Shown: positions 17,645 through 32,000, counted from the first letter of the stretch. The stretch is DNA of 32,000 bases from Desulfotalea psychrophila LSv54 (GCF_000025945.1 NC_006138.1:2640001-2672000); one strand, 5' to 3'. Program-made: numbers and translations. Notes: generated from the sequence alone by a model not told the origin.

Positions 17645-18607
17645 CTAAGCATCGTCTCCAGCGAACGCCCGAAAGGTCTCCATGGCAAAGAGGGCTCTTG
17701 CAGACGGGCTTCTTCTCTTCTGTCCTTCCCCATCGATGAGATCAACCCGGGGCTGAAGGCCATAGCCGTTGGCAACCTGAATGGCGAGGCCGGGCCTGGC
17801 GTTCAGCTCCAGAATCATGGGGCCCTTATTCATATCCAGGACGATATCCACCCCGAGGTAACCGAGACCGGTGATTTCATAACACCTGGCGGCCAAATCT
17901 ACAAAGGCAGACCAATCAGGAACCGAAAAGGTGGAGAGGTCTTTGCCGGTATCCGGATGACGAGTCACAGGACGGTCAAACTGAACGGCCTTGAGGGCAT
18001 GGCCGGTGCCGATATCGATACCCACTCCCACGGCGCCCTGGTGCAGGTTGGCCTTGCCATCCGAATCTTCTGTGGAGAGACGGGTCATGGCCATTATCGG
18101 GTATCCCTTGTAGACAATGACGCGGATATCGGGCACGCCCTGGTAAGAAAAGCCTGTAAAGGCAGAGGAGAACTCAACCATCTCCTCAATCATGGCCACG
18201 TCGTTATTACCACCAAGGCTGAAGAGACCACTGAGGGTGTTCGAGGCATGACGTTTAACCTCCTGAAGGGTGACCCTCGCCCCGCCTGGTTTGAGGAACG
18301 CCTTACCGTCGCGTCCGCCGATGACGAGGATCCCCTTACCACCACTGCCCCGGGCCGGTTTGATGACAAAGGGAGGACAGGTTTCCAGAAATGCTTCAAG
18401 CTCCCTGACATTGCCCTGGGTCTTAACCACCCCGAGAAGCCTGGGCGCGGAGATCCCGGCCTTTGCCAGAATTACCTTGGTCTTCAGTTTGTCATCCACC
18501 AAGGGATAGAGTTTTCTCGGGTTGTTTTGCGCGATCAGAACCACATTGCGTCTGTTCATACCCACAATACCGGCCTTTTTCAGTTGGGCGGGAGAGGCAA
18601 AAAACAT
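17645..18607 (-). CDS. Alpha-L-glutamate ligase-related ATP-grasp protein (RimK-related amidoligase)
   Basis: The N-terminus GIVGMNRRNVVLIAQNNPRKLYPLVDDKLKTKVILAKAGISAP is characteristic of the rimK-related E-ligase family. ATP-grasp motifs FVIKPARGSGGKGI and LGVDIVLD...ILELNARPG are present. Confidence 0.85.
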   Translation of the reverse strand: MFFASPAQLKKAGIVGMNRRNVVLIAQNNPRKLYPLVDDKLKTKVILAKAGISAPRLLGVVKTQGNVRELEAFLETCPPFVIKPARGSGGKGILVIGGRDGKAFLKPGGARVTLQEVKRHASNTLSGLFSLGGNNDVAMIEEMVEFSSAFTGFSYQGVPDIRVIVYKGYPIMAMTRLSTEDSDGKANLHQGAVGVGIDIGTGHALKAVQFDRPVTRHPDTGKDLSTFSVPDWSAFVDLAARCYEITGLGYLGVDIVLDMNKGPMILELNARPGLAIQVANGYGLQPRVDLIDGEGQKRRSPSARALFAMETFRAFAGDDA

Positions 18608-18609
18608 AC

Positions 18610-20124
18610 TTACTTGCCCCCGGACAGAGGTTCAAATCGTCGCAACTCGGTCAGCCTGTAACCGGAGTAACTTCCAATCATAATGATCACAGCCAGAACC
18701 ACCAGCAAAAGCTCGGGGAAGGAATAGGTCAGGTGGCCTACATAGGGGTTTTTCATAACCAGAAAGATAATTGATGCTGAAAAGAGGCTACCTCCACCCT
18801 GAATGAAAACATCCCTGGGGCCCTCTTCTTCCCAGAGAACAGACATGCGCTCAATGGTCCAGGAAATAATGATCATGGGAAAAAAGGTCACCCTTAAGCC
18901 CGCCTCTATCCCCATCTTGATACTAATAACGCTAATGGCCACATAGATAATGATGACAAAGACAAGTACCGCCGAGATCCTCGGCACAAGGAGCAAGTTC
19001 AGGCTACTCAGATAGTAACGGAGAATCAAACCAATCCCGACGATAATAATAAAGAGTGACAGCCCTGCCAGAAGATTAACCTGCAAGAAAACCAAGGCAA
19101 TAAGAATAGGCATAAATGTGCCTGAGGTTTGCACCCCCACAAGGTTCCTAAGGATCACAATGATGAGGGCGCCGATGGGAATGAGGAGCAAGAGTTTAAA
19201 GGTGTTCTGCTGAGAGACGGGAAGACTGTAGATGGAGAAATCAATGAACTTGCTACCGCTGTACCTACCGTGCTGCACAGCAGCTCTTTGGGCCGAGATC
19301 TCTCCTGTCAGGGTGGAATACCTGATCTTTCCGCCTGTGCCGCCCATAATCTCAAGGATAGACTCACTGCCATGCTGCCACTGCAGGAACTGATCCCGAT
19401 TTTCCAGCTCTGCGGTTCTTGGGTTGATCAACTGCACCTGCCGTCCGTTCTGGATTTCAATAAAGCTTCTCAGCTTCTGCTTTTTCTTTGACACTGCTAA
19501 ATTGAGCCCCTTAACAGAGCGTGACTTCACCCCGGCTCTGTTCAGCAAGCTACAGGCAAGATTTACCTTCCCGCCGTATTCGTCCGCGTCGGTGAGGAGC
19601 AACGAGGCGTCCTGATTGATGGGGTCATTAAGGGACACAAGGATTGCCCTTGCCAGCCCCAACTCCGAGGTCTCTTTGCCAAGGGCCTCGGTGACAATAT
19701 GATCGGCTGCCACCTCATGGGCTCCGCTGAAAATAATCACTGCTGCCGGTTCTATCTCCTTCTGGCTAACCTCTCCTCCATCACTGCGCCTATAGGCCGT
19801 GGACCTGAAAAAAATCTTCTGCCGGCCACTTACATCAGCGGCACGCCAGACAGCCCGGCTTCCCTTTCGCTCAAAGCTATACCCTTCAGCAATAGATTTT
19901 CTACCCAGGACTGCGATGGCATCATTGGGGTCGGGCGTATTAACCGAGATCTGCACCGGCCCACCGTCAGCGATAAAGGAGATGGTCGCCTCAACGGTCC
20001 AGGCCATCTCTTTTTTTCCTGGAAGCAGGGGAAAGCCCAACTCTATATGCTTGTATATGGTGGCACCTACCCCCAACACGACCAGAACAGCAACAATGAC
20101 AATAATCTGAATTTGCTGTTTCAT
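18610..20124 (-). CDS. Inactive-transglutaminase domain fused to a 7-TM module (partner of the ATP-grasp ligase)
   Basis: N-terminal TM, then a ~290-aa extracytoplasmic domain, then ~7 hydrophobic helices in the C-terminal 200 aa. The gene has an ATGA overlap with the upstream gene and a 2-nt gap to the ATP-grasp gene. This architecture matches the conserved three-gene amidoligase system described by comparative genomics. Confidence 0.7.
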   Translation of the reverse strand: MKQQIQIIVIVAVLVVLGVGATIYKHIELGFPLLPGKKEMAWTVEATISFIADGGPVQISVNTPDPNDAIAVLGRKSIAEGYSFERKGSRAVWRAADVSGRQKIFFRSTAYRRSDGGEVSQKEIEPAAVIIFSGAHEVAADHIVTEALGKETSELGLARAILVSLNDPINQDASLLLTDADEYGGKVNLACSLLNRAGVKSRSVKGLNLAVSKKKQKLRSFIEIQNGRQVQLINPRTAELENRDQFLQWQHGSESILEIMGGTGGKIRYSTLTGEISAQRAAVQHGRYSGSKFIDFSIYSLPVSQQNTFKLLLLIPIGALIIVILRNLVGVQTSGTFMPILIALVFLQVNLLAGLSLFIIIVGIGLILRYYLSSLNLLLVPRISAVLVFVIIIYVAISVISIKMGIEAGLRVTFFPMIIISWTIERMSVLWEEEGPRDVFIQGGGSLFSASIIFLVMKNPYVGHLTYSFPELLLVVLAVIIMIGSYSGYRLTELRRFEPLSGGK

Positions 20125-20858
20125 CTCTGTTTCTCACTCATGGGGGTAGTTACGTTTTTACGATTTACGTCGACCACAAATTCGCCCTGAAGGAAATTTC
20201 GACCTATGAGAATCTGGTATGCAAAATCAGAGCGATCGGCCAGAGAAAATTCCCTAACAAGCCTGACGCCCCCCATCATACTCTTTACCGTGACCACAGG
20301 TCTTTTCAGCGACTTCTCTCCATGGCGCTTAATCGTTACATTACGAGAGAGACGACATTTCATCTCTTTTTTCTGACCGCTTCTCCTATCTCTCACCATA
20401 AAACGAACCCATTTTTCCCCATCACGCTCAAAGCGCCTTATATCCTTAGCATCAAGGGAAGAGGTCGTTGCCCCAGTATCGATCCTGGCAGGCATTGTCA
20501 CCCCGGACTTAATAAGGGTGACCGGTTCCACCTCACCAATGAGGCGAAGACCGGCAGAGGGCTGAAAAACCGGTTTTATACCGGTCTCAGGGCCCGGTTT
20601 AACTTCGATTCCGACAGCCGGTTTAACTTCGATTCCGACAGCCGGTTTAGCTTCAATGCCGACAGCCGGTTTAGCTTCAATTCCGACAGCCGGTTTAGCT
20701 TCAATTCCGACAGCCGGTTTAGCTTCAATTCCGACAGCCGGTTTAACCCCGGCTTCAATGTCCGGCCTGGATAGGGTACATGAACAAAGTAGCACCGGAA
20801 CCAATAAAAGCATCACTATTCTCTGCCAGCCAAAGATGGCTTTCCTGATCTGAACCAT
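20121..20858 (-). CDS. Retropepsin-like 'ATP-dependent Zn protease' (PF05618/RimB-like) with a signal/lipoprotein-like N-terminus and a (KPAVGIEA)n repeat linker
   Basis: The probable start M21 gives MVQIRKAIFGWQRIVMLLLVPVLLCSC. About six and a half KPAVGIE[AV] repeats follow. The catalytic-type motif is ARIDTGATTSSL, followed by VRFMV...ILIGRNFL. Confidence 0.75.
   Translation of the reverse strand: MVQIRKAIFGWQRIVMLLLVPVLLCSCTLSRPDIEAGVKPAVGIEAKPAVGIEAKPAVGIEAKPAVGIEAKPAVGIEVKPAVGIEVKPGPETGIKPVFQPSAGLRLIGEVEPVTLIKSGVTMPARIDTGATTSSLDAKDIRRFERDGEKWVRFMVRDRRSGQKKEMKCRLSRNVTIKRHGEKSLKRPVVTVKSMMGGVRLVREFSLADRSDFAYQILIGRNFLQGEFVVDVNRKNVTTPMSEKQR
20594..20760 (-). repeat. 24-bp head-to-tail tandem repeat (6 full units plus 1 degenerate) inside the protease gene
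   Basis: On the + strand, units CCGGTTTA(A/G)CTTC(G/A)AT(T/G)CCGACAG lie at 20594, 20618, 20642, 20666, 20690 and 20714. A degenerate unit starts at 20738. Units 4-6 are identical. Confidence 0.95.
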
Positions 20859-21221
20859 TTTTACTCTTTTCACCTGAAAATATATTAACATTCGCCAATT
20901 ATCATTGCCGAAACTCATTCAGCACCGGGCCTGTCATAAACCGCAAGAAGGTTGCCTCCAACCAATCTTGCGGCGACGCCCCCACGAGGACCCCTCTTTT
21001 CCCAGCTCACCTTTTGCCATATTGCCAGTCTGAGGCATGCAGATCTCACTGCCCATATAACATTGTTCTTGTCAATCAGCAACACCACTGATAGAAAGCT
21101 ACCTATTTACAGATGCTTGGAAGAAGACCATCCCCCATTTACACCTGAAGATAATACCTTTACAGATTAGTGAGATTTTATTTCCATAGCTCTCACGGTT
21201 CACACCTGCACATTTATTTAC

Positions 21222-21626
21222 TGGATTTTAGAAAAAAACGGCCCCAAAAGGACTAATGCGGTCAATGAGAACTTGCGCTTCATGAGCTATCTGAAGAATT
21301 TGAACAAAATATTTTACAAATGAGGGAGAAAGCGACGTCTGCAGAAGGCAATAGTGTCGTAATCAGGATGATTATTGCCAGTGATATAGCGAAAAGCAAC
21401 AGAGTCATAGGTGGCTTTTTCAATTTTACGCAGAAAAACACTCCTGTCGCATATCCTTAGAACAAAAGGGCTGTCATCATTTCTGAAAAATATACCTTAC
21501 TGCCTCGACCACCATATGCCTTCTTAATTGCAAAAATGTCCAATTGTCCCACTCTTGCAATGACAAAACGTACCAAATGGCCTTTCGATAGCAAATCTTA
21601 CACGTTGGCAGAAACATAAAAATCTG
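21222..21626 (-). pseudogene. IS1182-family (IS5-like, DUF772 N-terminal domain) transposase remnant
   Basis: The minus strand reads FLPT...LLSKGHLVRFVIARVGQLDIFAIKKAYGGRGSKVYFSEMMTALLF*GYATGVF, then a frameshift, then RKIEKATYDSVAFRYITGNNHPDYDTIAFCRRRFLPHL*. The classic YGxGRxxYxPxMM...SSRKIE...AFRY...PDxxTIxxFRRRF pattern is interrupted by a stop and frameshifts. The catalytic C-terminal part is absent. Confidence 0.6.
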
Positions 21627-21902
21627 CTATCGACTACCACCTGTGAAGGTTACACTCATACCTACCTAACCTCTTATTATAAATTGATTACTGGCAACAG
21701 TATAGCATGATTTTGAAAAAGGCCGACAGACTCTAGACCCTGCATGGTAAGGCTTCAACAACCCCGCACCCAGAGAGATTAAGGCCCCGCCTCCCTGCCA
21801 TCACTGACCTTCATCCCCCCTAACTAATATCATCGAGTTACACGATCTGGCAAGAGACCGCCCCTTCGCTCAATGATCTACTCGATGAGCCCATACCACC
21901 TT

Positions 21903-23543
21903 TCACTTATAAAGAGTGGCAATAGAGTCGGCCAGTCTCTGCGCTAGTTCAGAGGCTTCATATTTATCTGTCACAACTTCGATATAGGCACCGCTACCAC
22001 AGGCCTCGGCCTTCCTGATCGCCTCATCAAGTTCACCGCAAGTCGTCACCCGGGCGCTAAACCAACCGTCACAACCCAGTACTTCAGGAAGGTCTTTATA
22101 GTGCCACTGGGCAAGATCGTTATAGTAGATATCGGGGTCGCGGCAGAGCAATCGCTCAATCAGATAACCATCGTTGCTGAGCACGAAAATGATTGGTTTG
22201 AGACCATAGCGATGAAACTGACTGATTTCCTGGGCCGTAAACTGATGCGAACCCTCACCGGTGATGAGGATCGTTCGACGATCCGGGGCTGCCAAAGCAG
22301 CACCTAACGCGGCGGGGGTGGCCCAGCCGATCGATCCCCACAGGCTCTGATTGAGAAAGAGCGAGCCATTGGGCATCTTAGCGAAACCGAGCCCCATCGA
22401 GCATGTTCCGGTTTCGGCAACCAGTATATCGTCGGCCTTCAGCATCTGTTCCCAGCGTGGGTAGAGATAATCCACCGTGATCTTATCGTCCTCGCCACCG
22501 ACCGGCTCTCCGAGCCCCTCCACCCTGGGGCCCAGACCATACTTACGGGGCAGTTTTTCGGCCAGCATGACCAAGACATCCTTCATTTCGATATTGTGGT
22601 AGATGGCAGTCCCTACCCGCACCCTATGTGGCATGATATTGATACTTGCGGCAGGATCGATGTTGGCCGTAAAAGAGCCGGAGTTAAAATCTGTGAGCAT
22701 CATGCCGATAGCAAGCAGGCAGTCACTGCCCTCGACAAAGGCCCGAACCTGCTCATTCATCAGCTCGCCGTTGTAGATACCTATATAGCTAGGGTGCGCC
22801 TCATTGAGTACACACTTGTCCATGAACATGGTGGCGAAGGGCAGGCCTGAAGCCTCGACCACGGCGGCAGCCTGGTCTCGAAGCCCGAAACGGGTAGCCA
22901 TGATACCGGGCAGGATACAGGCCCTCTTACTTACGGAAACGGCATGACAAATCGCCTCTACCGCGGCCGCCAGGGTGCCCACCTCGCTTGTTGCCACAAC
23001 CACTGCCTCTGCCTGCCCCACAACCGGCATATCCGCATAGTCTCCCGGGAATGCCATATATACCGGCCGACGGTGATAGAAAGCCGCGGCAATGAGACGT
23101 TCAGTCTCGGCCACACAGTTATCCGGGGTCATGATAGCTCGAGCGCAGACCACCGGCTCCGTCATTTTATAAAAGAGGTCGAACTCACCGTTACCGAGGG
23201 TGTGATGCACTAGGCGGTGAGCGGCCTGAACCCTGCTCGCAGGCATTCCCACCAGATGAAATATTGGCAGATGTTCAGCATAGGCTCCGGCAATGCCGTT
23301 AATGGCGCTGAGCTCTCCTACCCCATAGGCGGTACTGAGCGCAGCAAGACCGTGGATCCGGGCGTAACCATCGGCTGCATAGGCGGCATTAAGTTCGTTA
23401 CAGTTGCCAATCCAGCGCAGCTCCTTATCATTACAAACAGCATCGTTAATGGGGAATGCATAGTCACCCGGTACCCCGAAAACATCCTTCACTCCAAGAT
23501 CTTTCAATCGGGAAAGTACATATTCTATTACGGTCTGTTCCAT
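21903..23543 (-). CDS. Thiamine-diphosphate-dependent 2-keto-acid decarboxylase (indolepyruvate/phenylpyruvate/pyruvate decarboxylase family)
   Basis: The N-terminus VKDVFGVPGDYAFPINDAV...NELNAAYAADGYAR...VGELSAINGIAGAYAEHLPIFHLVGMP is typical of the PDC/IPDC family. The TPP motif is TGEGSHQFTAQEI...VLSNDGY. Confidence 0.9.
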   Translation of the reverse strand: MEQTVIEYVLSRLKDLGVKDVFGVPGDYAFPINDAVCNDKELRWIGNCNELNAAYAADGYARIHGLAALSTAYGVGELSAINGIAGAYAEHLPIFHLVGMPASRVQAAHRLVHHTLGNGEFDLFYKMTEPVVCARAIMTPDNCVAETERLIAAAFYHRRPVYMAFPGDYADMPVVGQAEAVVVATSEVGTLAAAVEAICHAVSVSKRACILPGIMATRFGLRDQAAAVVEASGLPFATMFMDKCVLNEAHPSYIGIYNGELMNEQVRAFVEGSDCLLAIGMMLTDFNSGSFTANIDPAASINIMPHRVRVGTAIYHNIEMKDVLVMLAEKLPRKYGLGPRVEGLGEPVGGEDDKITVDYLYPRWEQMLKADDILVAETGTCSMGLGFAKMPNGSLFLNQSLWGSIGWATPAALGAALAAPDRRTILITGEGSHQFTAQEISQFHRYGLKPIIFVLSNDGYLIERLLCRDPDIYYNDLAQWHYKDLPEVLGCDGWFSARVTTCGELDEAIRKAEACGSGAYIEVVTDKYEASELAQRLADSIATLYK

Positions 23544-24580
23544 AACTCCTCTCCTTACTTGTTAGCTGTTAGCTTGTCGATTTTAGAGCTAAGGCCTGCA
23601 ATAGGGTGTGTGCTGTGACTTAGCTAAACTAAAAGAACAAGTCATGCCGGCCTGTTCATCATTGATAGCTGACAATTTTTATTCTTACAGTTGCTTAAAA
23701 TAAATTTGATAAAAAAAAGCACCTAAACATTCCACCGTTGAAAAACATTAGACGATTTCCTCCAACCAATATGCAGGGATAATTTTGGAAGATAGAATCT
23801 TCTGTCCATGGCCCAAGAAAGGGCAACTATAAGAAACAACAGGGTGTATGGGACAGGTATAGGTCGTTAACTCATCCTGGCTTGCAAGAGAGGATGAAGC
23901 CCCCCATTCAGATACTCTCTGGATCTTCTTTTGTCTTTATTTTTTGCGCAAATATCTCCATATCCCCTGTGCTTGATTAAGACTTAAGTTCAGCGAAAGC
24001 TCTGCCCGAAAAATTTCAATCTCAACCTCTTGACCATGTGCTACAGATCATATCACAGATATTATGCTAAGTACCAAAGCCTCAACGAATGAATCAGCTT
24101 CCAAAGAAACTCTGGACCCTTATTATTATAGCATGGCAAGAGCGGAGGGTGGATTGCAGAAGAGTGTTAGGGGGTGTGAGTGTAGGATACTTGAACAGGA
24201 TTTTTTTATGTCATCTCCAAGCAACTTGTCGCACCTATTCTACCAACTCAGCTACCATAAAAAATCCGACAGACTCCTAATGGGACTCTATGTGACCCTG
24301 TAATTAATTACAGCGCCAATACTACCTCTTATGCAAACAAGAGCTACAGGGGAGACAGCTAAGAGTCAAATAAATCTTTACTCACAGACGAGAAAGAGTG
24401 TGTAGCCGGGACCAATTGAAGACAAATCCATCCTGACAGAGAGAGCACCTGTCAAGGGCATATTTATTTAAGAACCGACCGACCAAGCAGAGGAGAGCAA
24501 AACAATGTGCCCCTTCTCACTTGATTTCGCCTGCCTGATTCACCTAGCATGTTAATAGGTCTTTCAATTTTCATGATCTC

Positions 24581-24610
24581 CCTCTGCCAGCCATACTCTC
24601 CTGGCAGAGG
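24581..24610 (+). other. Perfect 10-bp-stem hairpin in the 5' leader, 22 nt upstream of the aldehyde dehydrogenase start codon
   Basis: CCTCTGCCAG (24581..24590) pairs with CTGGCAGAGG (24601..24610) across a 10-nt loop. No U-tract follows, so it is not a classical terminator. Confidence 0.5.
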
Positions 24611-24632
24611 AGTCACAAGCTACGAGGACAAT

Positions 24633-26165
24633 ATGGAAAGTATAAAAAAACTACATATAAAGAAAGCCAACAGCGGTATTTGCACCGGCACAGAGTGGAT
24701 CTCCCCCGCAGGTAGCAAGGTCATAGAATCCATCTCACCTGTGGACGGAAGGATCATCGCCAAAATCCAAGCAGGAGGAGCGCCTGAATATAAGCGAATT
24801 ATTACTCAGGCCCAAAAGGCCTTTCCCCTCTGGCGGAAAATCCCTGCCCCTGAGCGTGGAGAAATTGTCCGACAGATTGGCGAGGCCCTGCGCAAAGATA
24901 AGGAGAACCTTGGCAGGATGATTTGCCTGGAGATGGGGAAATCTCTTCAGGAGGGATATGGAGAGGTACAGGAAATGATCGATGTCTGTGACTTTGCCGT
25001 GGGCCAGTCACGCATGTTATACGGCGCCACCATGCCCTCGGAAAGACCCTCCCACAGACTCTACGATCAGTATCATCCCCTTGGTGTTGTCGGCATTATT
25101 ACTGCCTTTAATTTTCCTGCCGCAGTTTGGGCCTGGAACGCCATGCTCTCGACTGTCTGTGGCAATGTCTTGGTATGGAAGCCCTCTTCCCAGGTAGGCC
25201 TAACCGCCATTGCCATCCAGCATATCATCGCCCGGGTCCTCAAGAAAAACAAGCTGCCCGAAGGCATTTTTTCTCTTATCTGTGGTAGTGGCAAGGACAT
25301 AGGCGACCTGATGCTTGCAGATACCCGCCTGCCCCTTATCTCCTTTACCGGTTCTGTTCGTACCGGTCGACATGCCGCCCAAATCATTGCCGGGCGCCTC
25401 GGTAAATCCCTCCTAGAGCTGGGAGGAAATAACAGTATCATTATCAGCCCAGAGGCAGATCTTGCTATTGCCATCCCCGCCGTGGTCTTTGGCGCTGTCG
25501 GTACTGCTGGACAACGCTGCACCACCACCCGTCGCCTGATTATTCATGAATCTATCTATGACAAGGTAAGAGATGGTCTGACAAAGGCCTATAAAAGTCT
25601 GCGTATTGGCAGCCCCCTCAACCAAGATAACCATATGGGGCCCCTGGTAAACCAGGATGCCGTCGCCAATTATCTCGCAGCAGTAGAGACCATCAAAGAC
25701 CAAGGGGGAGAGATACTATGCGGTGGCCATGCCCTACAAGGAGAGGGCTTTGAATCTGGCTGCTATGTTGCCCCCACCCTGGTTGAGGTGAAAAGCGATA
25801 TCCCCATTATCAAGGAGGAGACCTTTGCTCCCATCCTCTATTTAATTAGGTATAGCGGAGATATTAACCAGGCCATAGAGATCAATAACAGTGCCCATGA
25901 GGGACTCTCCTCTGCCATTTTTTCCAACAACCTGCGGGAGGCTGAAACCTTCCTCTCGCCATGGGGTTCTGACTGTGGCATTGCCAATGTCAATATCGGT
26001 ACCTCGGGGGCTGAGATTGGCGGCGCCTTTGGCGGAGAAAAAGACACCGGAGGTGGGCGTGAATCCGGTTCAGACGCCTGGAAGGCCTATATGCGCCGAC
26101 AAACGGTGACCATAAACTATGGCCACGAACTGCCCCTGGCCCAGGGGATAAACTTTACCATCTAA
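24633..26165 (+). CDS. amaB: ALDH7-type aldehyde dehydrogenase (alpha-aminoadipate semialdehyde / piperideine-6-carboxylate dehydrogenase)
   Basis: EGYGEVQEMIDVCDFAVGQSRMLYGATMPSERPSHRLYDQYHPLGVVGIITAFNFPAAVWAWN closely follows the antiquitin/ALDH7 signature. The catalytic region ELGGNN...GTAGQRCTT is present. Start at ATG 24633 (GAGGA RBS) is preferred over 24549. Confidence 0.85.
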   Translation: MESIKKLHIKKANSGICTGTEWISPAGSKVIESISPVDGRIIAKIQAGGAPEYKRIITQAQKAFPLWRKIPAPERGEIVRQIGEALRKDKENLGRMICLEMGKSLQEGYGEVQEMIDVCDFAVGQSRMLYGATMPSERPSHRLYDQYHPLGVVGIITAFNFPAAVWAWNAMLSTVCGNVLVWKPSSQVGLTAIAIQHIIARVLKKNKLPEGIFSLICGSGKDIGDLMLADTRLPLISFTGSVRTGRHAAQIIAGRLGKSLLELGGNNSIIISPEADLAIAIPAVVFGAVGTAGQRCTTTRRLIIHESIYDKVRDGLTKAYKSLRIGSPLNQDNHMGPLVNQDAVANYLAAVETIKDQGGEILCGGHALQGEGFESGCYVAPTLVEVKSDIPIIKEETFAPILYLIRYSGDINQAIEINNSAHEGLSSAIFSNNLREAETFLSPWGSDCGIANVNIGTSGAEIGGAFGGEKDTGGGRESGSDAWKAYMRRQTVTINYGHELPLAQGINFTI

Positions 26166-26204
26166 GACGGGACAAGCTCCCCTCTCATATACTGGAGATT
26201 ATCT

Positions 26205-27515
26205 ATGACATCTCGCGTAAGCTCTACTCTGGCCCGACATATACTGGCGGACGGCCTGCCCTTGGTTTTTGATCTGAAAAAATCCCGGGGATCGCAGTTG
26301 GTAGATAAAAATAGCGGCGACAGTTTTTTAGATTTTTTCTCCATGTTCGCCTCCATGGCCGTGGGGCACAACCACCCAAGCCTCTTGGCAATACAGGAGC
26401 AACTTGGGGCCGTGGCCATCCAAAAGCCTTCCAGCTCGGATGTCTACACCGAAGAGTTTGCTGAATTTGTCGACACCTTCGCCCAGCTGGCAATGCCTGC
26501 GTTCATGCCCCATGCCTTCTTTATCGAAGGAGGGGCCCTGGCCGTTGAGAACAGCCTCAAAACTGCCTTCGACTGGAAAACCCGCCTCAACCAAGCGAGA
26601 GGCATAGCCACACCTAAGGGCACAAAAATCATCCATTTCCAGCAGGCCTTTCACGGTCGTTCCGGCTATACCCTCTCTTTAACCAATACCCATGACCCGA
26701 GAAAGACAAAGTTCTTCCCCATAATGGACTGGCCACGAATCCTCAATCCCAAAATCACCTTCCCACTTAATCGAGAAAACCTTGGACAGGTCATCGAACT
26801 GGAGGAGAGGGCTCTTGCCCAGATTCACCAGGTTATTGGCAGGGAAGGTGATGATATTGCTGGCCTCATCATTGAGCCTATCCAGGGAGAAGGCGGTGAC
26901 AACCACTTCCGCCCGATTTTTTTCCGGCAACTACGCAAGATCTGCGATGACCATGATATTTTGTTCATCGTAGATGAGATCCAAAGCGGAATGGGCATAA
27001 CCGGAAAGATGTGGGCCCATGAACATTTAGAGATTGAACCGGATATCCTCTGCTTTGGTAAGAAGACTCAGGTCTGCGGCATTATGGCAAGCAAAAGAAT
27101 CGACAAGGTTGAAAACAATGTCTTTAAAGAGTCCAGCCGACTCAACTCCACCTTCGGGGGCAATCTGGTAGACATGGTGCGCTGTACCCATATTCTCAGA
27201 ATTATTGAAGAGGAGAGACTGGTGGACAATGCCCGAGTCCAGGGAAATCATCTTCTCCGTCAGCTTGAAGGCCTGGGAGAAGAGTTCCCCCACCTTGTCT
27301 CCAACCCCCGGGGTAGAGGCCTTATGTGCGCCTTTGACCTACCCTCAGAGACCATGCGCAATCAATTTATCGAGGATATGTATAAGGCGCGGGTACTGCT
27401 CCTCGGCTGCGGAGAAAAAGCCATCAGGTTCCGGCCCCACCTCGTGGTTCGTCGGGAAGAGATTGACGAAGGCATGGATATTATCCGTCGGACCATCAAA
27501 AAAACAATGGGTTAA
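26205..27515 (+). CDS. lat: L-lysine 6-(epsilon)-aminotransferase (class III PLP aminotransferase)
   Basis: The N-terminus HILADGLPLVFDLKKSRGSQLVDKNSGDSFLDFFSMFASMAVGHNHP matches the LAT family pattern. Also present: IIEPIQGEGGDNHF, VDEIQSGMGITGKMWA, and the PLP-lysine region FGKKTQVCG. Confidence 0.85.
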   Translation: MTSRVSSTLARHILADGLPLVFDLKKSRGSQLVDKNSGDSFLDFFSMFASMAVGHNHPSLLAIQEQLGAVAIQKPSSSDVYTEEFAEFVDTFAQLAMPAFMPHAFFIEGGALAVENSLKTAFDWKTRLNQARGIATPKGTKIIHFQQAFHGRSGYTLSLTNTHDPRKTKFFPIMDWPRILNPKITFPLNRENLGQVIELEERALAQIHQVIGREGDDIAGLIIEPIQGEGGDNHFRPIFFRQLRKICDDHDILFIVDEIQSGMGITGKMWAHEHLEIEPDILCFGKKTQVCGIMASKRIDKVENNVFKESSRLNSTFGGNLVDMVRCTHILRIIEEERLVDNARVQGNHLLRQLEGLGEEFPHLVSNPRGRGLMCAFDLPSETMRNQFIEDMYKARVLLLGCGEKAIRFRPHLVVRREEIDEGMDIIRRTIKKTMG

Positions 27516-27522
27516 TCCTGCA

Positions 27523-29112
27523 ATGAAAAGTTCAAAGAGAAAGAGACTGGCCCTCCACCTCGACCAGCAGATCGAGGGTACGGTCTATACCGACCAGACA
27601 ACCCTGCAGCGCTATTCCACCGATAAATCCATTTATCAGGTGGTACCGCAAATGGTTGTAAGCCCTGCCTCAATGGAGGATCTTACTACCATAGTGAGCA
27701 CGGCCAGAGACGAGAACCTGTCTGTCACCGCCCGAGGTGGTGGTTCCGGAACGGCAGGTGCAGCCCTCGGTGAGGGTATTGTTATCCATCTGCCCCGCAA
27801 TGGTTTCCTAGGTAATATAGTTGACTTCAGCACCGGGGCTGGCAAGGACTATATTACTGTTGAAGCCGGTGTCTACCATGATACCATCCAGACATTTTTA
27901 AAAAAGGAGGGCTATTATCTGCCGGCAGACCCCTCCAGCTCCCCCCTCTGCCAGATAGGTGGCAATATTGCTACCAAGGCAAGCGGGCCACATGGCTTTT
28001 CCCATGGCAGTATCGACAGATTTTTACAGGATATCGAATATATCTCGGCCCGGGGTGAGCATATCGATTCGGCCCGGCCAAAGAGCATCCCGCCAACTCT
28101 CAGGGCAGCCCTTACCCAACTACAAGAGAAGGTTCGAGCTGATAAGGCAACGGTCTCCCTGCTAAAAAAACGGCGCAATTTCAAGACAGCAAGTGGCTAT
28201 AACCTCTTTGCCCTTATGGCTGAGCTGCAACCAGAAAAAATCCTGGCCCAGCTTTTCGCCGGCAGTGTCGGCAGTCTTGGCCTCATCACCCGAGCGACGT
28301 TGCGCGTTGAGCCCTATACCCCCGAAAAGGCGGCCCTCCTCCTCTACTTCACCGACCTCCATGCTCTCAGCCTGGCTACTCAGGAGGCAATTGCGGCAGA
28401 GGTAACTGCCATCGAGGTGATCAGTCAAGCCACCATCAGGCTCCTGAAAAGGAGGAAGGGAGCAGGAAGCGATGAACTCCATAACGGCCATCTGCTCTTT
28501 ATTGAATGTGAGGGGCCAATGCGGCAGGCCCGACTGGCGCAACTTAAGGAGAAGCTCAGAAAAAGCCCAAACCTCCTCGTCCCTCCCCAAGAGGCACAGA
28601 CAGAGGAAGAGCTTGCCAAACTGTGGAAAATCCGCAAACAGATCCTACCGGTACTTCTCCGACCCGGGGCTGGAATGAAGGCCCTCTCAATCGTCAATGA
28701 TGTTGGGGTTCCACCTCAGCACCTGGCCCACTTTATCGAGGACATTGAGACTTTTTTCAGAAAGAAGGGTCTGGAAACGGTGATCTATGGCCATGCGGGC
28801 AATGGCAATCTTCATCTCCGCCCTCTAATCAATATTAAAGAGACAGATCTGAAAGAGCGCATTCAGGCCATTGCCGACGGAGTCTACGAGATAGTCTTCC
28901 GCTATAAGGGTACCATCACCGCCGAACATGCCATGGGACGACTACGCACTCCCTATCTTGAACGGGAATGGGGCTCGTCCATATACAGGCACATGAAGAG
29001 GGTCAAAGATATTTTCGATCCAGATAATATCTTAAACCCCGAGGCAATGTTTGGCAGGGGAGCCATTACCGATAAGATGCGCCATGACCTATTTGAACCA
29101 GTTCAAAAATAA
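27523..29112 (+). CDS. FAD-binding oxidoreductase (PCMH-type FAD domain, GlcD/YdiJ-N-terminal-like); candidate D-2-hydroxyacid dehydrogenase
   Basis: YSTDKSIYQVVPQMVVSPAS...ARGGGSGTAGAALGEGIVI...VEAGV...CQIGGNIATKASGPHG...GHAGNGNLHLRP...GTITAEHAMGR. The ATG is 8 nt after the lat stop. The 5' 106 codons of the track ORF overlap lat in another frame and are rejected. Confidence 0.8.
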   Translation: MKSSKRKRLALHLDQQIEGTVYTDQTTLQRYSTDKSIYQVVPQMVVSPASMEDLTTIVSTARDENLSVTARGGGSGTAGAALGEGIVIHLPRNGFLGNIVDFSTGAGKDYITVEAGVYHDTIQTFLKKEGYYLPADPSSSPLCQIGGNIATKASGPHGFSHGSIDRFLQDIEYISARGEHIDSARPKSIPPTLRAALTQLQEKVRADKATVSLLKKRRNFKTASGYNLFALMAELQPEKILAQLFAGSVGSLGLITRATLRVEPYTPEKAALLLYFTDLHALSLATQEAIAAEVTAIEVISQATIRLLKRRKGAGSDELHNGHLLFIECEGPMRQARLAQLKEKLRKSPNLLVPPQEAQTEEELAKLWKIRKQILPVLLRPGAGMKALSIVNDVGVPPQHLAHFIEDIETFFRKKGLETVIYGHAGNGNLHLRPLINIKETDLKERIQAIADGVYEIVFRYKGTITAEHAMGRLRTPYLEREWGSSIYRHMKRVKDIFDPDNILNPEAMFGRGAITDKMRHDLFEPVQK

Positions 29113-29151
29113 GTTCCCTGATACATCTCATGTAAAGATGGAGAGAACATA

Positions 29152-30546
29152 ATGAAAAATGTAGATAGATTTGCCTGGCAACGACAGCCCCGGACAGAGA
29201 CCTACCTGGTAAGTTTAATAACAGATCTGGCAGAAAAAAATCCGCTCATTGGTAAACTTGATAATAAATTACAGACCATTACCTCGACAAGGATGCTCGA
29301 CTGGCTGGATCATATTGTGGCCGAGGATTCGCTGCTGCTTCGTCAACGTCTTAGTCAGTTGGGCTTTACCGAAAAAAGATCCCCTACAGGGAGCATTTTT
29401 TCCCCTCATGGCGTGAGCCTACCCAAAATTATTCTACCAGAATCAGTGAAAAGATCTCCTCCGGGTATCGCCCTAAAGGTAGACTCCATCGCTGATTTTC
29501 TCCAGTGCAACAGTCTCAGCGGTGAAATTGAGGGTACCCCCTTGGCCCAGGTACGAAAGTGCACGGCCTCCCGCAAGAATGGCACAGCCCTTTATGCGGT
29601 GGAACGCAGGGGCAGTGATGCTCTACCCCCAGCCCATATTGAAATTGATCCAGCCCGATATCTGCAGGCAATAGAAAAATGGCAGCGCCTGCCCAGGTCA
29701 GGGCCTGATCGCGATCAGACCTTTGCCCTGATAGTTCATACTGCCCAAGAGTTGGTTGAGAGCATGGGCCAAAACCTTGCCGCCCATATTGTCTGTGAAG
29801 CCGAGCGACGTTACTGGATGTCACGCAATCAGGCTGGGCGTATACAAAAGATGCGTCAGGATATTATGGGAATGGGATGGGCAAATCATGATCACCATAC
29901 CTTTCGCAGTTCAAGGAAACACTTTAATCAACTGATCAACCTCTTCACCCTCCTTGGCTTTCATAAGCGGGAAAGATTCTACGCAGGTGCTGAAGCGGGA
30001 TGGGGCGCCCAGGTAATGGAGAACCCCACAGCAGGCATCTCCCTCTTTCTCGATGTAGACCTGGCCCCGGAGGAGATGGAAGTTGATTTTTCCAGACAGG
30101 AACTGGCTGAGCGGGAAGAACTTGGCAGCGTAGGCCTGTGGTGCGCACTACACGGAGACTCGATTCTCGGTGCCGGCATGCACCATCTGGCGGCAGCCTT
30201 TCTCTTTGCTGATCTCCCCACCGACCTGGCAGGCTATAATATTAACTTTATGGAACCGTTTAGCGATTTTCCCTATCTCAAACAGGCATTTAGTTCGGGA
30301 GAGCGCTGGGACACTGATCCGGAGGTGGTACAAGGCCTGCTTAAAGATAGGCTTATCAGCGAAAAGCAGGCAGATCGATTCCTCGACAAGGGGGCCATTG
30401 GCAGCCATTTGGAGAATATTCAGCGCCGGGATGGCTATAAGGGCTTTAACCAAGAGAACGTCAGCGTCATCATAGCGGAAACTGATCCCCGAAGGGTTGC
30501 TGATGTTAGAGGGGACCTGCCCCATCACTGGTCGAAAATGCCGTAA
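29152..30546 (+). CDS. Uncharacterised 464-aa protein; the C-terminal half carries DUF1338/HglS-like (VOC-fold Fe(II) 2-oxoadipate dioxygenase/decarboxylase family) motifs
   Basis: A GGAGAG RBS precedes the ATG. Three motifs occur in the same order as in DUF1338: NHDHHTFRS...LINLFTLLGF (H-x3-R), GMHHLAAAF (cf. NHLT), and HLENIQRRDGYKGFNQENVSVIIAET (cf. GEIEQRG...GF..NA..IFEST). The comparison is from memory of YdcJ/HglS. Coding confidence is high; functional assignment is ~0.4. Confidence 0.7.
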   Translation: MKNVDRFAWQRQPRTETYLVSLITDLAEKNPLIGKLDNKLQTITSTRMLDWLDHIVAEDSLLLRQRLSQLGFTEKRSPTGSIFSPHGVSLPKIILPESVKRSPPGIALKVDSIADFLQCNSLSGEIEGTPLAQVRKCTASRKNGTALYAVERRGSDALPPAHIEIDPARYLQAIEKWQRLPRSGPDRDQTFALIVHTAQELVESMGQNLAAHIVCEAERRYWMSRNQAGRIQKMRQDIMGMGWANHDHHTFRSSRKHFNQLINLFTLLGFHKRERFYAGAEAGWGAQVMENPTAGISLFLDVDLAPEEMEVDFSRQELAEREELGSVGLWCALHGDSILGAGMHHLAAAFLFADLPTDLAGYNINFMEPFSDFPYLKQAFSSGERWDTDPEVVQGLLKDRLISEKQADRFLDKGAIGSHLENIQRRDGYKGFNQENVSVIIAETDPRRVADVRGDLPHHWSKMP

Positions 30547-30718
30547 CTTCTTTGTTGTAAGGGCATGCCCTACAGGTTTTCAACCGGCATAAGCATGGTT
30601 GATATCAAAAAAAAGTCTATCAGATCATGGATCTTCAACCTTTGTAATCTTAACCGAAAAGAGGGGCACTGGCTGGGGGCTACAAGATCAGCCTCTCAGC
30701 AGCTCCGGTCGGTTCCAC

Positions 30719-30841
30719 AGACAATACGAGCAACAAATGCTGAGCCTGGAGAGGATGAAAGGCCTGCTTGAGAACAGGTTCATTAGCGGGACCACGTTGA
30801 ACAATTTCCTAGCTACATGTTTGATTATCTGTGGATTATTT
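30719..30841 (+). pseudogene. Possible IS5-family transposase C-terminal remnant at the core/island junction
   Basis: RQYEQQMLSLERMKGLLENRFISGT--TLNNFLATCLIICGL resembles the IS5/IS427 C-terminal pattern YRQRNxIERxFxxLKxFRRIATRYDKxxxNFLAxxxLAxxxxWL with the RYDK segment deleted. The match is from memory only. Confidence 0.3.
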
Positions 30842-31283
30842 AAACAAAAACCTTTCTCTAAACCACCCAAGTTGCAACGTTGGTAAAAAGAATATCTTTA
30901 AACCATATTTGTATTGAAATGGTCGGTATTTATTTAGAGTATCGGTAAAATTTAACAATTTTTTCTCATCTTCGTCATAGCCTTGTTCTATTTTTATTTC
31001 TATGACCAAAAGATTATTCTCAAGTTCAAGCCTTCCACGTTTATGTATAACGATATCTGGTCTCTTATGATTTTTGTGAGAATCATGTTTCGGGTCAAGT
31101 TCTTCACCCATTTCGTTGTATTCACAATCAACATTAAATCCAGAGAAATACTCTTCTAGATTAACAGCATAACCTATGCGCAGTTGCCCATTCCAGTTTA
31201 TTGCATATCAGTTCCAGATCGTTGATCTGAACCTTTTTTATTGCCCCTAAGATAATTTTTTCTAAAATTTCGTGTTCCATCAT
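30836..31283 (-). pseudogene. PD-(D/E)xK nuclease-fold protein, apparently frameshifted near its N-terminus
   Basis: The 91-aa ORF contains RPDIVIH...NNLLVIEIK (D...E-x-K core). Its frame stays open upstream (YAINWNGQLRIGYAVNLEEYFSGFNVDCEYNE) as far as a stop at 31208..31210. A separate frame from ATG 31283 reads MMEHEILEKIILGAIKKVQINDLEL... A 1-nt shift near 31185-31225 would fuse the two. Confidence 0.45.
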
Positions 31284-31341
31284 TTTTTTATCCAATGCAC
31301 TTCATCTTTTATTTAGATAACGCCAAGTTAAATAGCGCACG

Positions 31342-31707
31342 TTAACGCATCTCAGCTTTAGTCCTTATTGGCTTCTTGAACTTCGAAGCTAGTTTAAATT
31401 TTAAGTTGCTTACGGTCTCTTCTCTATCAAAAGAGGCTTGAACTGCAATAATTGGGATACAATTTCTTTTAGCCTCACGCAACTCCCATTGAACCCATTC
31501 AGACTCATTAATAGAGTTGGATGACATTAGCAGTAACAATTGAGCTTGCGATAGCATCTGTTCTACGTGGCGTTGCTTGTCTATTGAGTCGTTATGTAAC
31601 AAGTCGATGTAATAAGACCCGTATTCTGAAAGCACCTCGGACACACTCTCTAATAGTTTACGATCAATATAGTGATCTCTAGTGGTATAACTAACGAATA
31701 TTCCCAT
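31342..31707 (-). CDS. Small TIR-like domain protein (ThsB/DUF1863-like)
   Basis: MGIFVSYTTRD (TIR betaA/box 1-like), LLLLMSSNSINSEWVQWELREA-type motif (S-x-W-x3-E-L-x-x-A), and CIPIIAV. 121 aa. The ATG begins 1 nt after the stop of the upstream small ORF. ~33% GC. Confidence 0.65.
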   Translation of the reverse strand: MGIFVSYTTRDHYIDRKLLESVSEVLSEYGSYYIDLLHNDSIDKQRHVEQMLSQAQLLLLMSSNSINESEWVQWELREAKRNCIPIIAVQASFDREETVSNLKFKLASKFKKPIRTKAEMR

Positions 31708-31708
31708 G

Positions 31709-31888
31709 TCACTTACCAATCCAATTCATAAAAAATGCAAACCAGCCTATAAGCCCTAGTGTCGATAAAGCATAGTAAAGAGACATTGAATGATTAAATG
31801 CCGCACCTAGCCAGCTTACTCCTAATTGTTCAGGTTGATAGTTGTCAATTAAATTTCTTTGAGCTATTGCTTGCAGTTTCCTGTTCAT
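31709..31888 (-). CDS. 59-aa ORF with a single C-terminal TM helix (below the ORF-track size cut-off)
   Basis: MNRKLQAIAQRNLIDNYQPEQLGVSWLGAAFNHSMSLYYALSTLGLIGWFAFFMNWIGK. Its stop TGA abuts the TIR-like ATG (TGAcATG). No strong RBS. Confidence 0.35.
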   Translation of the reverse strand: MNRKLQAIAQRNLIDNYQPEQLGVSWLGAAFNHSMSLYYALSTLGLIGWFAFFMNWIGK

Positions 31889-32000
31889 GGCAATTCTCGT
31901 TTTTCTTTGAAAGTAATATGCTGAAAAAATCTGCGACCCAAAACCCGAAGCAAATTAATAGCGGTATGAGAAAATATGTATGATCAAGTTGGTTGTCAGT
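31845..32000 (-). CDS. 3' end of an ORF entering from the right window edge (TM-like segment)
   Basis: The frame is open from base 32000: TDNQLDHTYFLIPLLICFGFWVADFFSILLSKKNENCHEQETASNSSKKFN*. It overlaps the 59-aa ORF by 44 nt, so only one of the two may be real. Confidence 0.25.
   Translation of the reverse strand, partial: TDNQLDHTYFLIPLLICFGFWVADFFSILLSKKNENCHEQETASNSSKKFN

Follow-up and report, generated by a model that had tools for sequence, protein, structure and literature searches.

Which reaction, if any, is catalysed by the product of the last gene in a lysine-degradation operon of Desulfotalea psychrophila LSv54? The gene, here called X, lies in a window of 32,000 nucleotides, the whole stretch of DNA that was analysed. 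An earlier note had described its product as a divergent protein in which an unrecognised N-terminal region is fused to a short DUF1338-like metal-binding module. The open reading frame reported there is genuine and ATG-initiated, with the Shine-Dalgarno-like sequence GGAGAG about 6 nt 5' of the start. Every one of the ordered motifs quoted in that note was found in the translation: HHTFR (residues 248-252), HHLA (344-347) and E421-N-I-Q-R425, and further G431-F...N436...E443-T444, WLDHIV (51-56) and GIALKVDSIADF (105-116).

Operon organization

The four genes of the operon are arranged in the order Pcd-LAT-FAD oxidase-X and are separated by 39, 7 and 39 nt, the last being the distance from the stop codon of the FAD oxidase to X (Table 1). 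The assignment to lysine degradation, also made in the earlier note, is borne out by the Pcd and LAT genes upstream of X, both of which score above curated equivalog cut-offs. The product of the third gene has its best NCBIfam match, below the cut-off, in the N-terminal half of the D-2-hydroxyglutarate dehydrogenase YdiJ, and among PDB entries it is related to glycolate oxidase, LctD, D-LDH and human D2HGDH; on the basis of these similarities we propose that it is a D-2-hydroxyglutarate dehydrogenase. No Rfam match, lysine riboswitch or other RNA element was found upstream of the operon (search of positions 20000-32000), and a consensus scan revealed no intrinsic terminator directly after X.

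Table 1. Positions of the operon genes and of the domains and motifs of X, counted from the first nucleotide of the window.
Feature	Position	Strand	Details
L-piperideine-6-carboxylate (2-aminoadipate semialdehyde) dehydrogenase, Pcd/AmaB	24549..26165	+	NF050084 equivalog, 776 bits vs cut-off 730
L-lysine 6-transaminase, LAT	26205..27515	+	TIGR03251 equivalog, 773 bits vs cut-off 521
FAD-linked oxidase, GlcD/D-2-hydroxyacid-dehydrogenase type	27523..29112	+	Pfam FAD_binding_4 and FAD-oxidase_C; ATG at 27523
Gene X, two-domain VOC-superfamily protein	29152..30546	+	464-aa ORF, ATG start
Two N-terminal helices and VOC-like beta-alpha-beta-beta-beta domain, residues 1-165	29152..29646	+	strands 52-56 to 145-152
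Four-helix linker or cap before the catalytic barrel, residues 166-237	29647..29862	+	helices 167-178, 187-205, 207-223, 227-237
Predicted catalytic VOC barrel, two beta-alpha-beta-beta-beta modules, residues 238-447	29863..30492	+	
H248-H-T-F-R252, H-x3-R motif, beta-1 of module A	29893..29907	+	H248 95%, R252 93%
H344-H345, beta-1 of module B	30181..30186	+	H344 92%, H345 93%; strand 345-349
H419-L-E421-N-I-Q-R425, last barrel strand	30406..30426	+	E421 91%, H419 90%, R425 95%; strand 421-425

Size and distribution of the family

X belongs to a family of unannotated proteins of about 450 aa. More than 6000 full-length homologues of this size were retrieved by a word-indexed search, all of them hypothetical proteins and none with a Pfam domain, and an exhaustive search gave 678 clusters at 50% identity. 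Because the best matches span the whole length, the two-domain architecture is the norm of the family and not an occasional fusion. The two parts described in the earlier note are present, and their combination is the architecture conserved in a large family of its own. No part of X was matched in sequence searches of Pfam, NCBIfam and the PDB, whether the query was the single protein or a profile built from 40 sequences, in agreement with the earlier statement that the N-terminal region has no recognisable family. We found no publication that describes the family or an alternative HglS.

In a scan of one genome per species, relatives of X were confirmed in at least 529 species from about ten phyla. 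The best 80 of these show 44-58% identity to the query and come from Desulfobacterota, Nitrospirota, Desulfuromonadales, many Chlamydiota, Verrucomicrobiota, Planctomycetota, Chloroflexota, KSB1, Aminicenantes, Caldithrix and Brocadiales. Within the host phylum X is present in two of 401 genomes, and a genome of the same genus is without it.

Predicted structure

Fold prediction and Foldseek both gave a VOC fold for X, as the earlier note had anticipated, and not a non-VOC one. In the AF2 model of the full-length protein (pLDDT 85.9, pTM 0.87) the possible N-terminal VOC-like module of that note is present as a domain of the beta-alpha-beta-beta-beta type, with residues ~46-155 forming the domain itself. 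Its conserved residues are D53, H54 (79%), E151 and R152. By analogy with HPPD this domain is probably structural, and R152 and E151 could contribute to the active-site entrance. The helical linker superposes on the N-terminal helices of DUF1338 structures, and the alignment with 3iuz starts at residue 166 in the full-length model, equivalent to residue 6 in the domain model. In the predicted catalytic barrel the modules cover residues 246-425 and are followed by a low-confidence loop (~430-445), which may be a mobile lid, and then by a helix.

With the full-length model, Foldseek aligned the whole chain to the two-barrel enzymes HMS and HPPD with E values of 1e-9 to 1e-6. X thus has tandem VOC barrels with conserved His and Glu in the C-terminal one, the HPPD/HMS-type layout, in which a non-catalytic N-terminal VOC domain precedes a catalytic C-terminal VOC barrel (predicted in X). 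By analogy, the same 2-His-1-Glu site and 2-oxo-acid chemistry would be expected in X as in these enzymes. X differs from them in its long inter-domain helical linker, in an H-x3-R motif that would select a dicarboxylate, and in its gene context, which is lysine catabolism rather than the tyrosine catabolism of HMS and HPPD. It has no match to the HPPD-type Pfam domains Glyoxalase and Glyoxalase_5 and no PDB sequence match to these proteins.

Structural comparison scores were obtained with a separate model of residues 160-464 (pLDDT 90.2). The DUF1338 structure 3iuz and rice HglS with 2-oxoadipate (6w1k) both scored 15.8 and the DUF1338 structure 3lho 15.4, ahead of HMS 2r5v (14.1), YdcJ 2rjb (11.5), glyoxalase I and methylmalonyl-CoA epimerase (MMCE; 9.4-10.7) and HPPD (8.2-9.6). 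Foldseek placed 3lho first and 6w1k second with the same model, a ranking that shows in X a central, partially closed VOC beta-barrel with surrounding helices of the DUF1338 type, and the structural neighbours of X in the ESM Atlas include a PF07063 cluster (TM 0.72). HMS trails HglS by only some 1.5 Z units, a margin too small for the fold by itself to specify the substrate of X. The X family is a separate VOC family that combines an HPPD-like two-domain layout with an HglS-like catalytic barrel and motif set.

Conserved residues and candidate metal site

Residue conservation was assessed in 120 members of the family, the most distant with about 30% identity. As the motifs of X are 91-95% conserved over this set, their occurrence is more than chance. 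The first metal ligand had earlier been placed at H249 (90% conserved). H248 is the likelier residue, since it provides the His of the H-x3-R motif, shows the higher conservation and lies on the same strand face as R252. By analogy with HglS, we propose H248, H345 and E421 as candidate metal ligands, and R252 as a candidate binder of the distal carboxylate of the substrate; conservation of candidate ligands among homologues, which the earlier note had looked for, was found for all three. In VOC enzymes the metal ligands are borne by beta-1 of both modules and by the final strand of module B; H248, H345 and E421 occupy these strands in the AF2 model. Other strongly conserved residues are R255 (98%), R273 (97%), E290 (97%), D301 (90%), D303 (100%) and H334 (96%). 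H344, H419, H334, D301 and D303 are conserved as strongly as H248, H345 and E421 and are alternative ligand candidates.

Some VOC proteins merely bind ligands, and X, which has no sequence match to any characterised enzyme, might be a non-catalytic VOC-fold binding or regulatory protein comparable to the bleomycin-binding proteins, or an inactive relic. However, His, Glu and Arg are kept at the catalytic positions, sequence conservation across phyla is very high (45-58% identity), and the gene is located within a catabolic operon at gaps of translational-coupling scale. We consider a non-catalytic role very improbable.

A second alternative arises from D301 and D303. These are on beta-4 of module A, at what we take to be the fourth-ligand place of glyoxalase I and MMCE, and a fourth ligand there, which is possible, would argue for a non-oxygenase site. 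This location is the main structural reason for keeping the alternative of an O2-independent VOC metalloenzyme, for example an isomerase, epimerase or lyase comparable to glyoxalase I and MMCE. The substrate of such an enzyme would be an intermediate derived from lysine, or a 2-hydroxy or 2-oxo acid, and the reaction would make or consume the substrate of the FAD-dependent D-2-hydroxyacid dehydrogenase. D303 and D301, together with the conserved H419 and H334, could provide the four-ligand site typical of non-oxygenase VOC enzymes. Against this, oxygenases are the best structural matches to X, with the DUF1338 structures 4-5 Z units above glyoxalase I and MMCE. Both of the latter are much smaller than X and have neither the helical cap nor the H-x3-R motif, two features that are specific to DUF1338.

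Relationship to HglS and DUF1338

The structures 3LHO, 3IUZ and 2RJB belong to DUF1338, and HglS, HMS and HPPD have a common barrel (PMC7286885). These three enzymes are O2-dependent and decarboxylate and hydroxylate 2-oxo acids (PMC7286885). The hallmark of the HglS family is the H70/H226/E294 triad with R74, the Arg four residues after the first His; R74 binds the distal carboxylate of 2-oxoadipate, and H-x3-R is the specificity determinant (PMC7286885). In Pfam, PF07063 is the 2-oxoadipate dioxygenase/decarboxylase family, with P. putida HglS, E. coli YdcJ and rice FLO7 among its members and PDB entries 6W1G/H/K, 2RJB, 3IUZ and 3LHO.

The candidate ligands of X follow the order known from HglS and DUF1338 (H-x3-R, second His, Glu), and the Arg four residues after the first His is present as R252. 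H248/R252 of X correspond to H70/R74 of HglS and to H68/R72 of YdcJ (H68-x3-R72, H224, E292), and the HLENIQR sequence around E421 resembles G-E-I-E-Q-R of YdcJ. The differences are also clear. As the earlier note had observed, the two His residues are 96-97 residues apart in X, compared with 156 in long-form DUF1338 proteins such as YdcJ (H68 to H224). X alone has a further VOC-like domain at its N terminus (about 165 residues), which is absent from DUF1338 proteins, and it has invariant residues additional to those of DUF1338 (D301, D303, H334, H419, R255 and R273).

At the sequence level, a Pfam search gave no PF07063 match to X even at E <= 1. The X family had an hhalign probability of 0.2% against the single YdcJ sequence and of 0.35% against a profile of nine long-form plasmid DUF1338 proteins, a comparison to be read with the fact that the best structural matches are short forms; overall, whole-length and domain-level comparisons with DUF1338 gave 0.2-2%. 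Module-level hhalign gave the expected register, weakly aligning H248/R252 with H68/R72 and MHHL with INHL, which places H345 on H224 of YdcJ. These scores are just 2-3 SD above column-shuffled controls (P ~0.025) and too weak to establish homology. A homologue search seeded with YdcJ returned near-identical E. coli copies alone. Because there is no significant sequence-level link to DUF1338, X is a distinct family, tied to HglS solely at the level of fold and motifs. Of the DUF1338-like module described earlier, the fold and the motifs are retained, while membership of PF07063 by sequence is not (no HMM match, hhalign below 2%).

The two families also differ in distribution, X occurring mostly in phyla where PF07063 is not found. 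PF07063 was detected neither in the host, by a whole-genome six-frame search, nor in 301 genomes from its phylum, and canonical HglS is encoded in none of 50 X-bearing genomes from many phyla. Canonical HglS genes carried on plasmids have an aminotransferase, an FAD-binding oxidoreductase and an aldehyde dehydrogenase as neighbours. These are the same kinds of gene neighbour as those of X, which would take the same place in the pathway.

Gene context and co-occurrence

The neighbourhoods of X were compared at 80 loci from other species, those of the best relatives. A GlcD-like FAD oxidase ortholog (41-53% identity) is directly upstream of X at 15-16 of the 80 loci, Pcd is near X at 13 and LAT at 11-12. 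The order Pcd-LAT-FAD oxidase-X occurs in Desulfobacterota, Nitrospirota and Desulfuromonadales. Verrucomicrobiota have the orders LAT-Pcd-small ORF-X-thiolase and Pcd-X-acyl-CoA dehydrogenase, Aminicenantes the order X-Pcd, and Geoalkalibacter the order Aldedh-aminotransferase-X. Pcd, LAT or both are thus linked to X across at least four phyla, in three different gene orders, and this conserved position in lysine-catabolic operons suggests that it fills the HglS step. No 2-aminoadipate aminotransferase is encoded in any of the operon variants examined. Among the 401 genomes of the host phylum, LAT scores above the cut-off in exactly the two that carry X, and the genome of the same genus has neither gene.

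A gene for a YdiJ-like FAD/Fe-S oxidoreductase of 946 aa is convergent to X at 13 other loci, which belong to Chlamydiota and one Verrucomicrobium, and some of these loci fall within an arginine-succinyltransferase cluster. X of Chlamydiota either stands alone or adjoins the YdiJ-like oxidoreductase gene. As LAT is present in only 10 of 50 X-bearing genomes, and all Chlamydiota are among the 40 without it, the X family is not exclusively tied to LAT-type lysine catabolism. Where LAT is absent, either 2-oxoadipate comes from elsewhere or the general substrate of the family is a different one.

The latter would make X an intramolecular 2-oxo-acid dioxygenase of the HglS/HMS/HPPD type with a different substrate or product. 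Candidate substrates would be an aromatic 2-oxo acid or a 2-oxo-dicarboxylate other than 2-oxoadipate, and the lysine operon would represent one recruitment of a general enzyme. Besides the frequent absence of LAT and the chlamydial loci, this is favoured by the JGI annotation of some family members as HPPD-like and by conserved Arg residues (R255, R273 and R425) beyond the single Arg of HglS. On the other hand, the tie to Pcd and/or LAT recurs across phyla and gene orders, X and LAT co-occur without exception in the host phylum, and H-x3-R is the determinant of specificity for the distal carboxylate in HglS (PMC7286885). Furthermore, chlamydial members (47-54% identity) and operon-type members (50-58%) are about equally similar to the query, which argues for one conserved function. 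A different substrate therefore seems rather unlikely to us.

Proposed function

The route from lysine through 2-aminoadipate, 2-oxoadipate and D-2-hydroxyglutarate to 2-oxoglutarate is recognised in genomes today via PF07063.

The best explanation of the data, for which we judge the case evenly balanced, is that X is a sequence-divergent 2-oxoadipate dioxygenase/decarboxylase making D-2-hydroxyglutarate. In the proposed mechanism we infer the substrate, product, metal, O2 requirement and ligand geometry wholly by analogy with HglS, HMS and HPPD. The metal, probably non-haem Fe(II), would be held by H248, H345 and E421 and chelated by the 2-oxo and C1-carboxylate oxygens of 2-oxoadipate, with the distal carboxylate bound by R252. 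Attack by O2 would lead to decarboxylation, and the resulting ferryl species would then hydroxylate the new C2, releasing D-2-hydroxyglutarate and CO2. In the operon, LAT would convert lysine to 2-aminoadipate semialdehyde, which Pcd would oxidise to L-2-aminoadipate. An aminotransferase encoded outside the operon would form 2-oxoadipate, X would convert this to D-2-hydroxyglutarate, and the FAD oxidase would yield 2-oxoglutarate, regenerating the amino acceptor of LAT.

If so, X would probably be a second family for the HglS step, one that sequence searches do not link to HglS, and it would fill the missing step in the lysine operons of Desulfobacterota, Nitrospirota, Desulfuromonadales and Verrucomicrobiota. 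It would also provide a testable function for thousands of hypothetical proteins that lack a Pfam domain, including those of environmental Chlamydiota.

Oxygen and the host lineages

The HglS step is odd in a sulfate-reducing anaerobe because the reaction needs oxygen, and no haem-copper oxidase was found in the host. The host does encode a cytochrome bd oxidase, which indicates that it encounters low O2. Many carriers of X belong to mostly anaerobic lineages (such as Desulfobulbaceae, Geobacteraceae, Anaerolineae, Brocadiales and Aminicenantes), and an obligately O2-dependent catabolic step in them is unexpected. This raises the question of whether an O2-dependent oxygenase serves catabolism in supposed strict anaerobes when conditions are micro-oxic, or whether the fold has evolved O2-independent chemistry.

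The many anaerobic hosts, with a sulfate reducer lacking haem-copper oxidase among them, are consistent with the O2-independent metalloenzyme introduced above, and the recurrent D-2-hydroxyacid dehydrogenase partner also fits a logic of the glyoxalase-to-D-lactate type. However, the cytochrome bd of the host and the aerobic or microaerophilic nature of many family hosts, such as Chlamydiota, Verrucomicrobiota and Planctomycetota, speak against it, and we know of no O2-free reaction that converts 2-aminoadipate or 2-oxoadipate to a D-2-hydroxy acid. Overall, we regard an O2-independent isomerase, epimerase or lyase as unlikely. Its more specific form, in which the whole family performs an O2-independent transformation on a four-ligand VOC metal centre (H248, D301 or D303, H345 and E421), is quite doubtful. 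If true, strict anaerobes would turn 2-aminoadipate, 2-oxoadipate or a different 2-oxo acid into a D-2-hydroxy acid for oxidation by the partner FAD dehydrogenase, and X would represent chemistry new to the VOC superfamily as well as an anaerobic step of lysine catabolism that was not known before.

Additional features of the locus

A functional tie of the operon to the divergent gene for a TPP-dependent decarboxylase (21903-23543) was considered and rejected, as the arrangement is conserved at none of the 80 loci. The alignment of Pcd to NF050084 begins at residue 62, and the true start of this gene may be a later in-frame codon. The operon has a GC content of 0.48-0.53 and its flanks a lower one, a difference in composition that is no more than suggestive of horizontal transfer.

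N-terminal domain of the predicted HglS-like protein

The N-terminal VOC-like domain of the predicted HglS-like protein, a two-domain member of the VOC superfamily, carries three near-invariant residues, D53 (95%), E151 (94%) and R152 (98%), while H54 is conserved in 79% of the same 120 family members, which reach down to about 30% identity. They may make up a second site or belong to the active-site entrance.

Genomic context in other species and in the window

In two Verrucomicrobiota loci (L087 and L094) the gene of the HglS-like protein is followed by a thiolase or acyl-CoA dehydrogenase gene and is not preceded by the FAD oxidase; the thiolase gene is similar to 3-oxoadipyl-CoA thiolase (pcaF; 579 bits vs a cut-off of 597). 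Such downstream genes hint at a CoA-dependent downstream branch. In four further loci from Verrucomicrobiota and Chlamydiota, a gene for a YdiJ-like FAD/Fe-S oxidoreductase of 946 aa lies near the homologue and convergent to it, and is transcribed in the same direction as astB, astD and astA of the arginine succinyltransferase (AST) pathway. An oxidoreductase of this type is not known to be required at any AST step.

In the window, the lysine operon is transcribed divergently from a gene for a TPP-dependent 2-oxo-acid decarboxylase; the roughly 1-kb gap between them is AT-rich (GC 0.41). The decarboxylase resembles indolepyruvate decarboxylase, with a TIGR03393 score of 461 bits, far under the 946-bit cut-off, and no counterpart of it was found adjoining the HglS-like gene in any of 80 loci from other species (the best 80 of at least 529 relatives). 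Immediately past the operon, an AT-rich block begins. Elsewhere in the window lie three consecutive genes: one for an ATP-grasp protein of the ATPgrasp_ST/RimK-like kind, one for an inactive transglutaminase with seven TM helices fused to it, and one for a putative ATP-dependent zinc protease. The set resembles a known gene trio predicted to modify peptides.

Coordinates of the features discussed (window positions unless a locus is named)
Feature	Position	Strand	Remark
Three consecutive genes	17645-20918	-	Domain content
TPP-dependent 2-oxo-acid decarboxylase gene	21903-23543	-	Likeness to TIGR03393
79-aa ORF	24064-24303	+	Intergenic region upstream of lysine operon
N-terminal VOC-like domain	29152-29646	+	Residues 1-165
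AT-rich block	30830-32000		GC 0.37-0.38
Small TIR-domain gene	31342-31719	-	Inside AT-rich block
Genes downstream of HglS-like gene, Verrucomicrobiota	L087:9389-10594 and L094:5578-6741		Thiolase or acyl-CoA dehydrogenase
YdiJ-like oxidoreductase/AST gene region	L026:7700-14501		Likewise in L042, L060, L069
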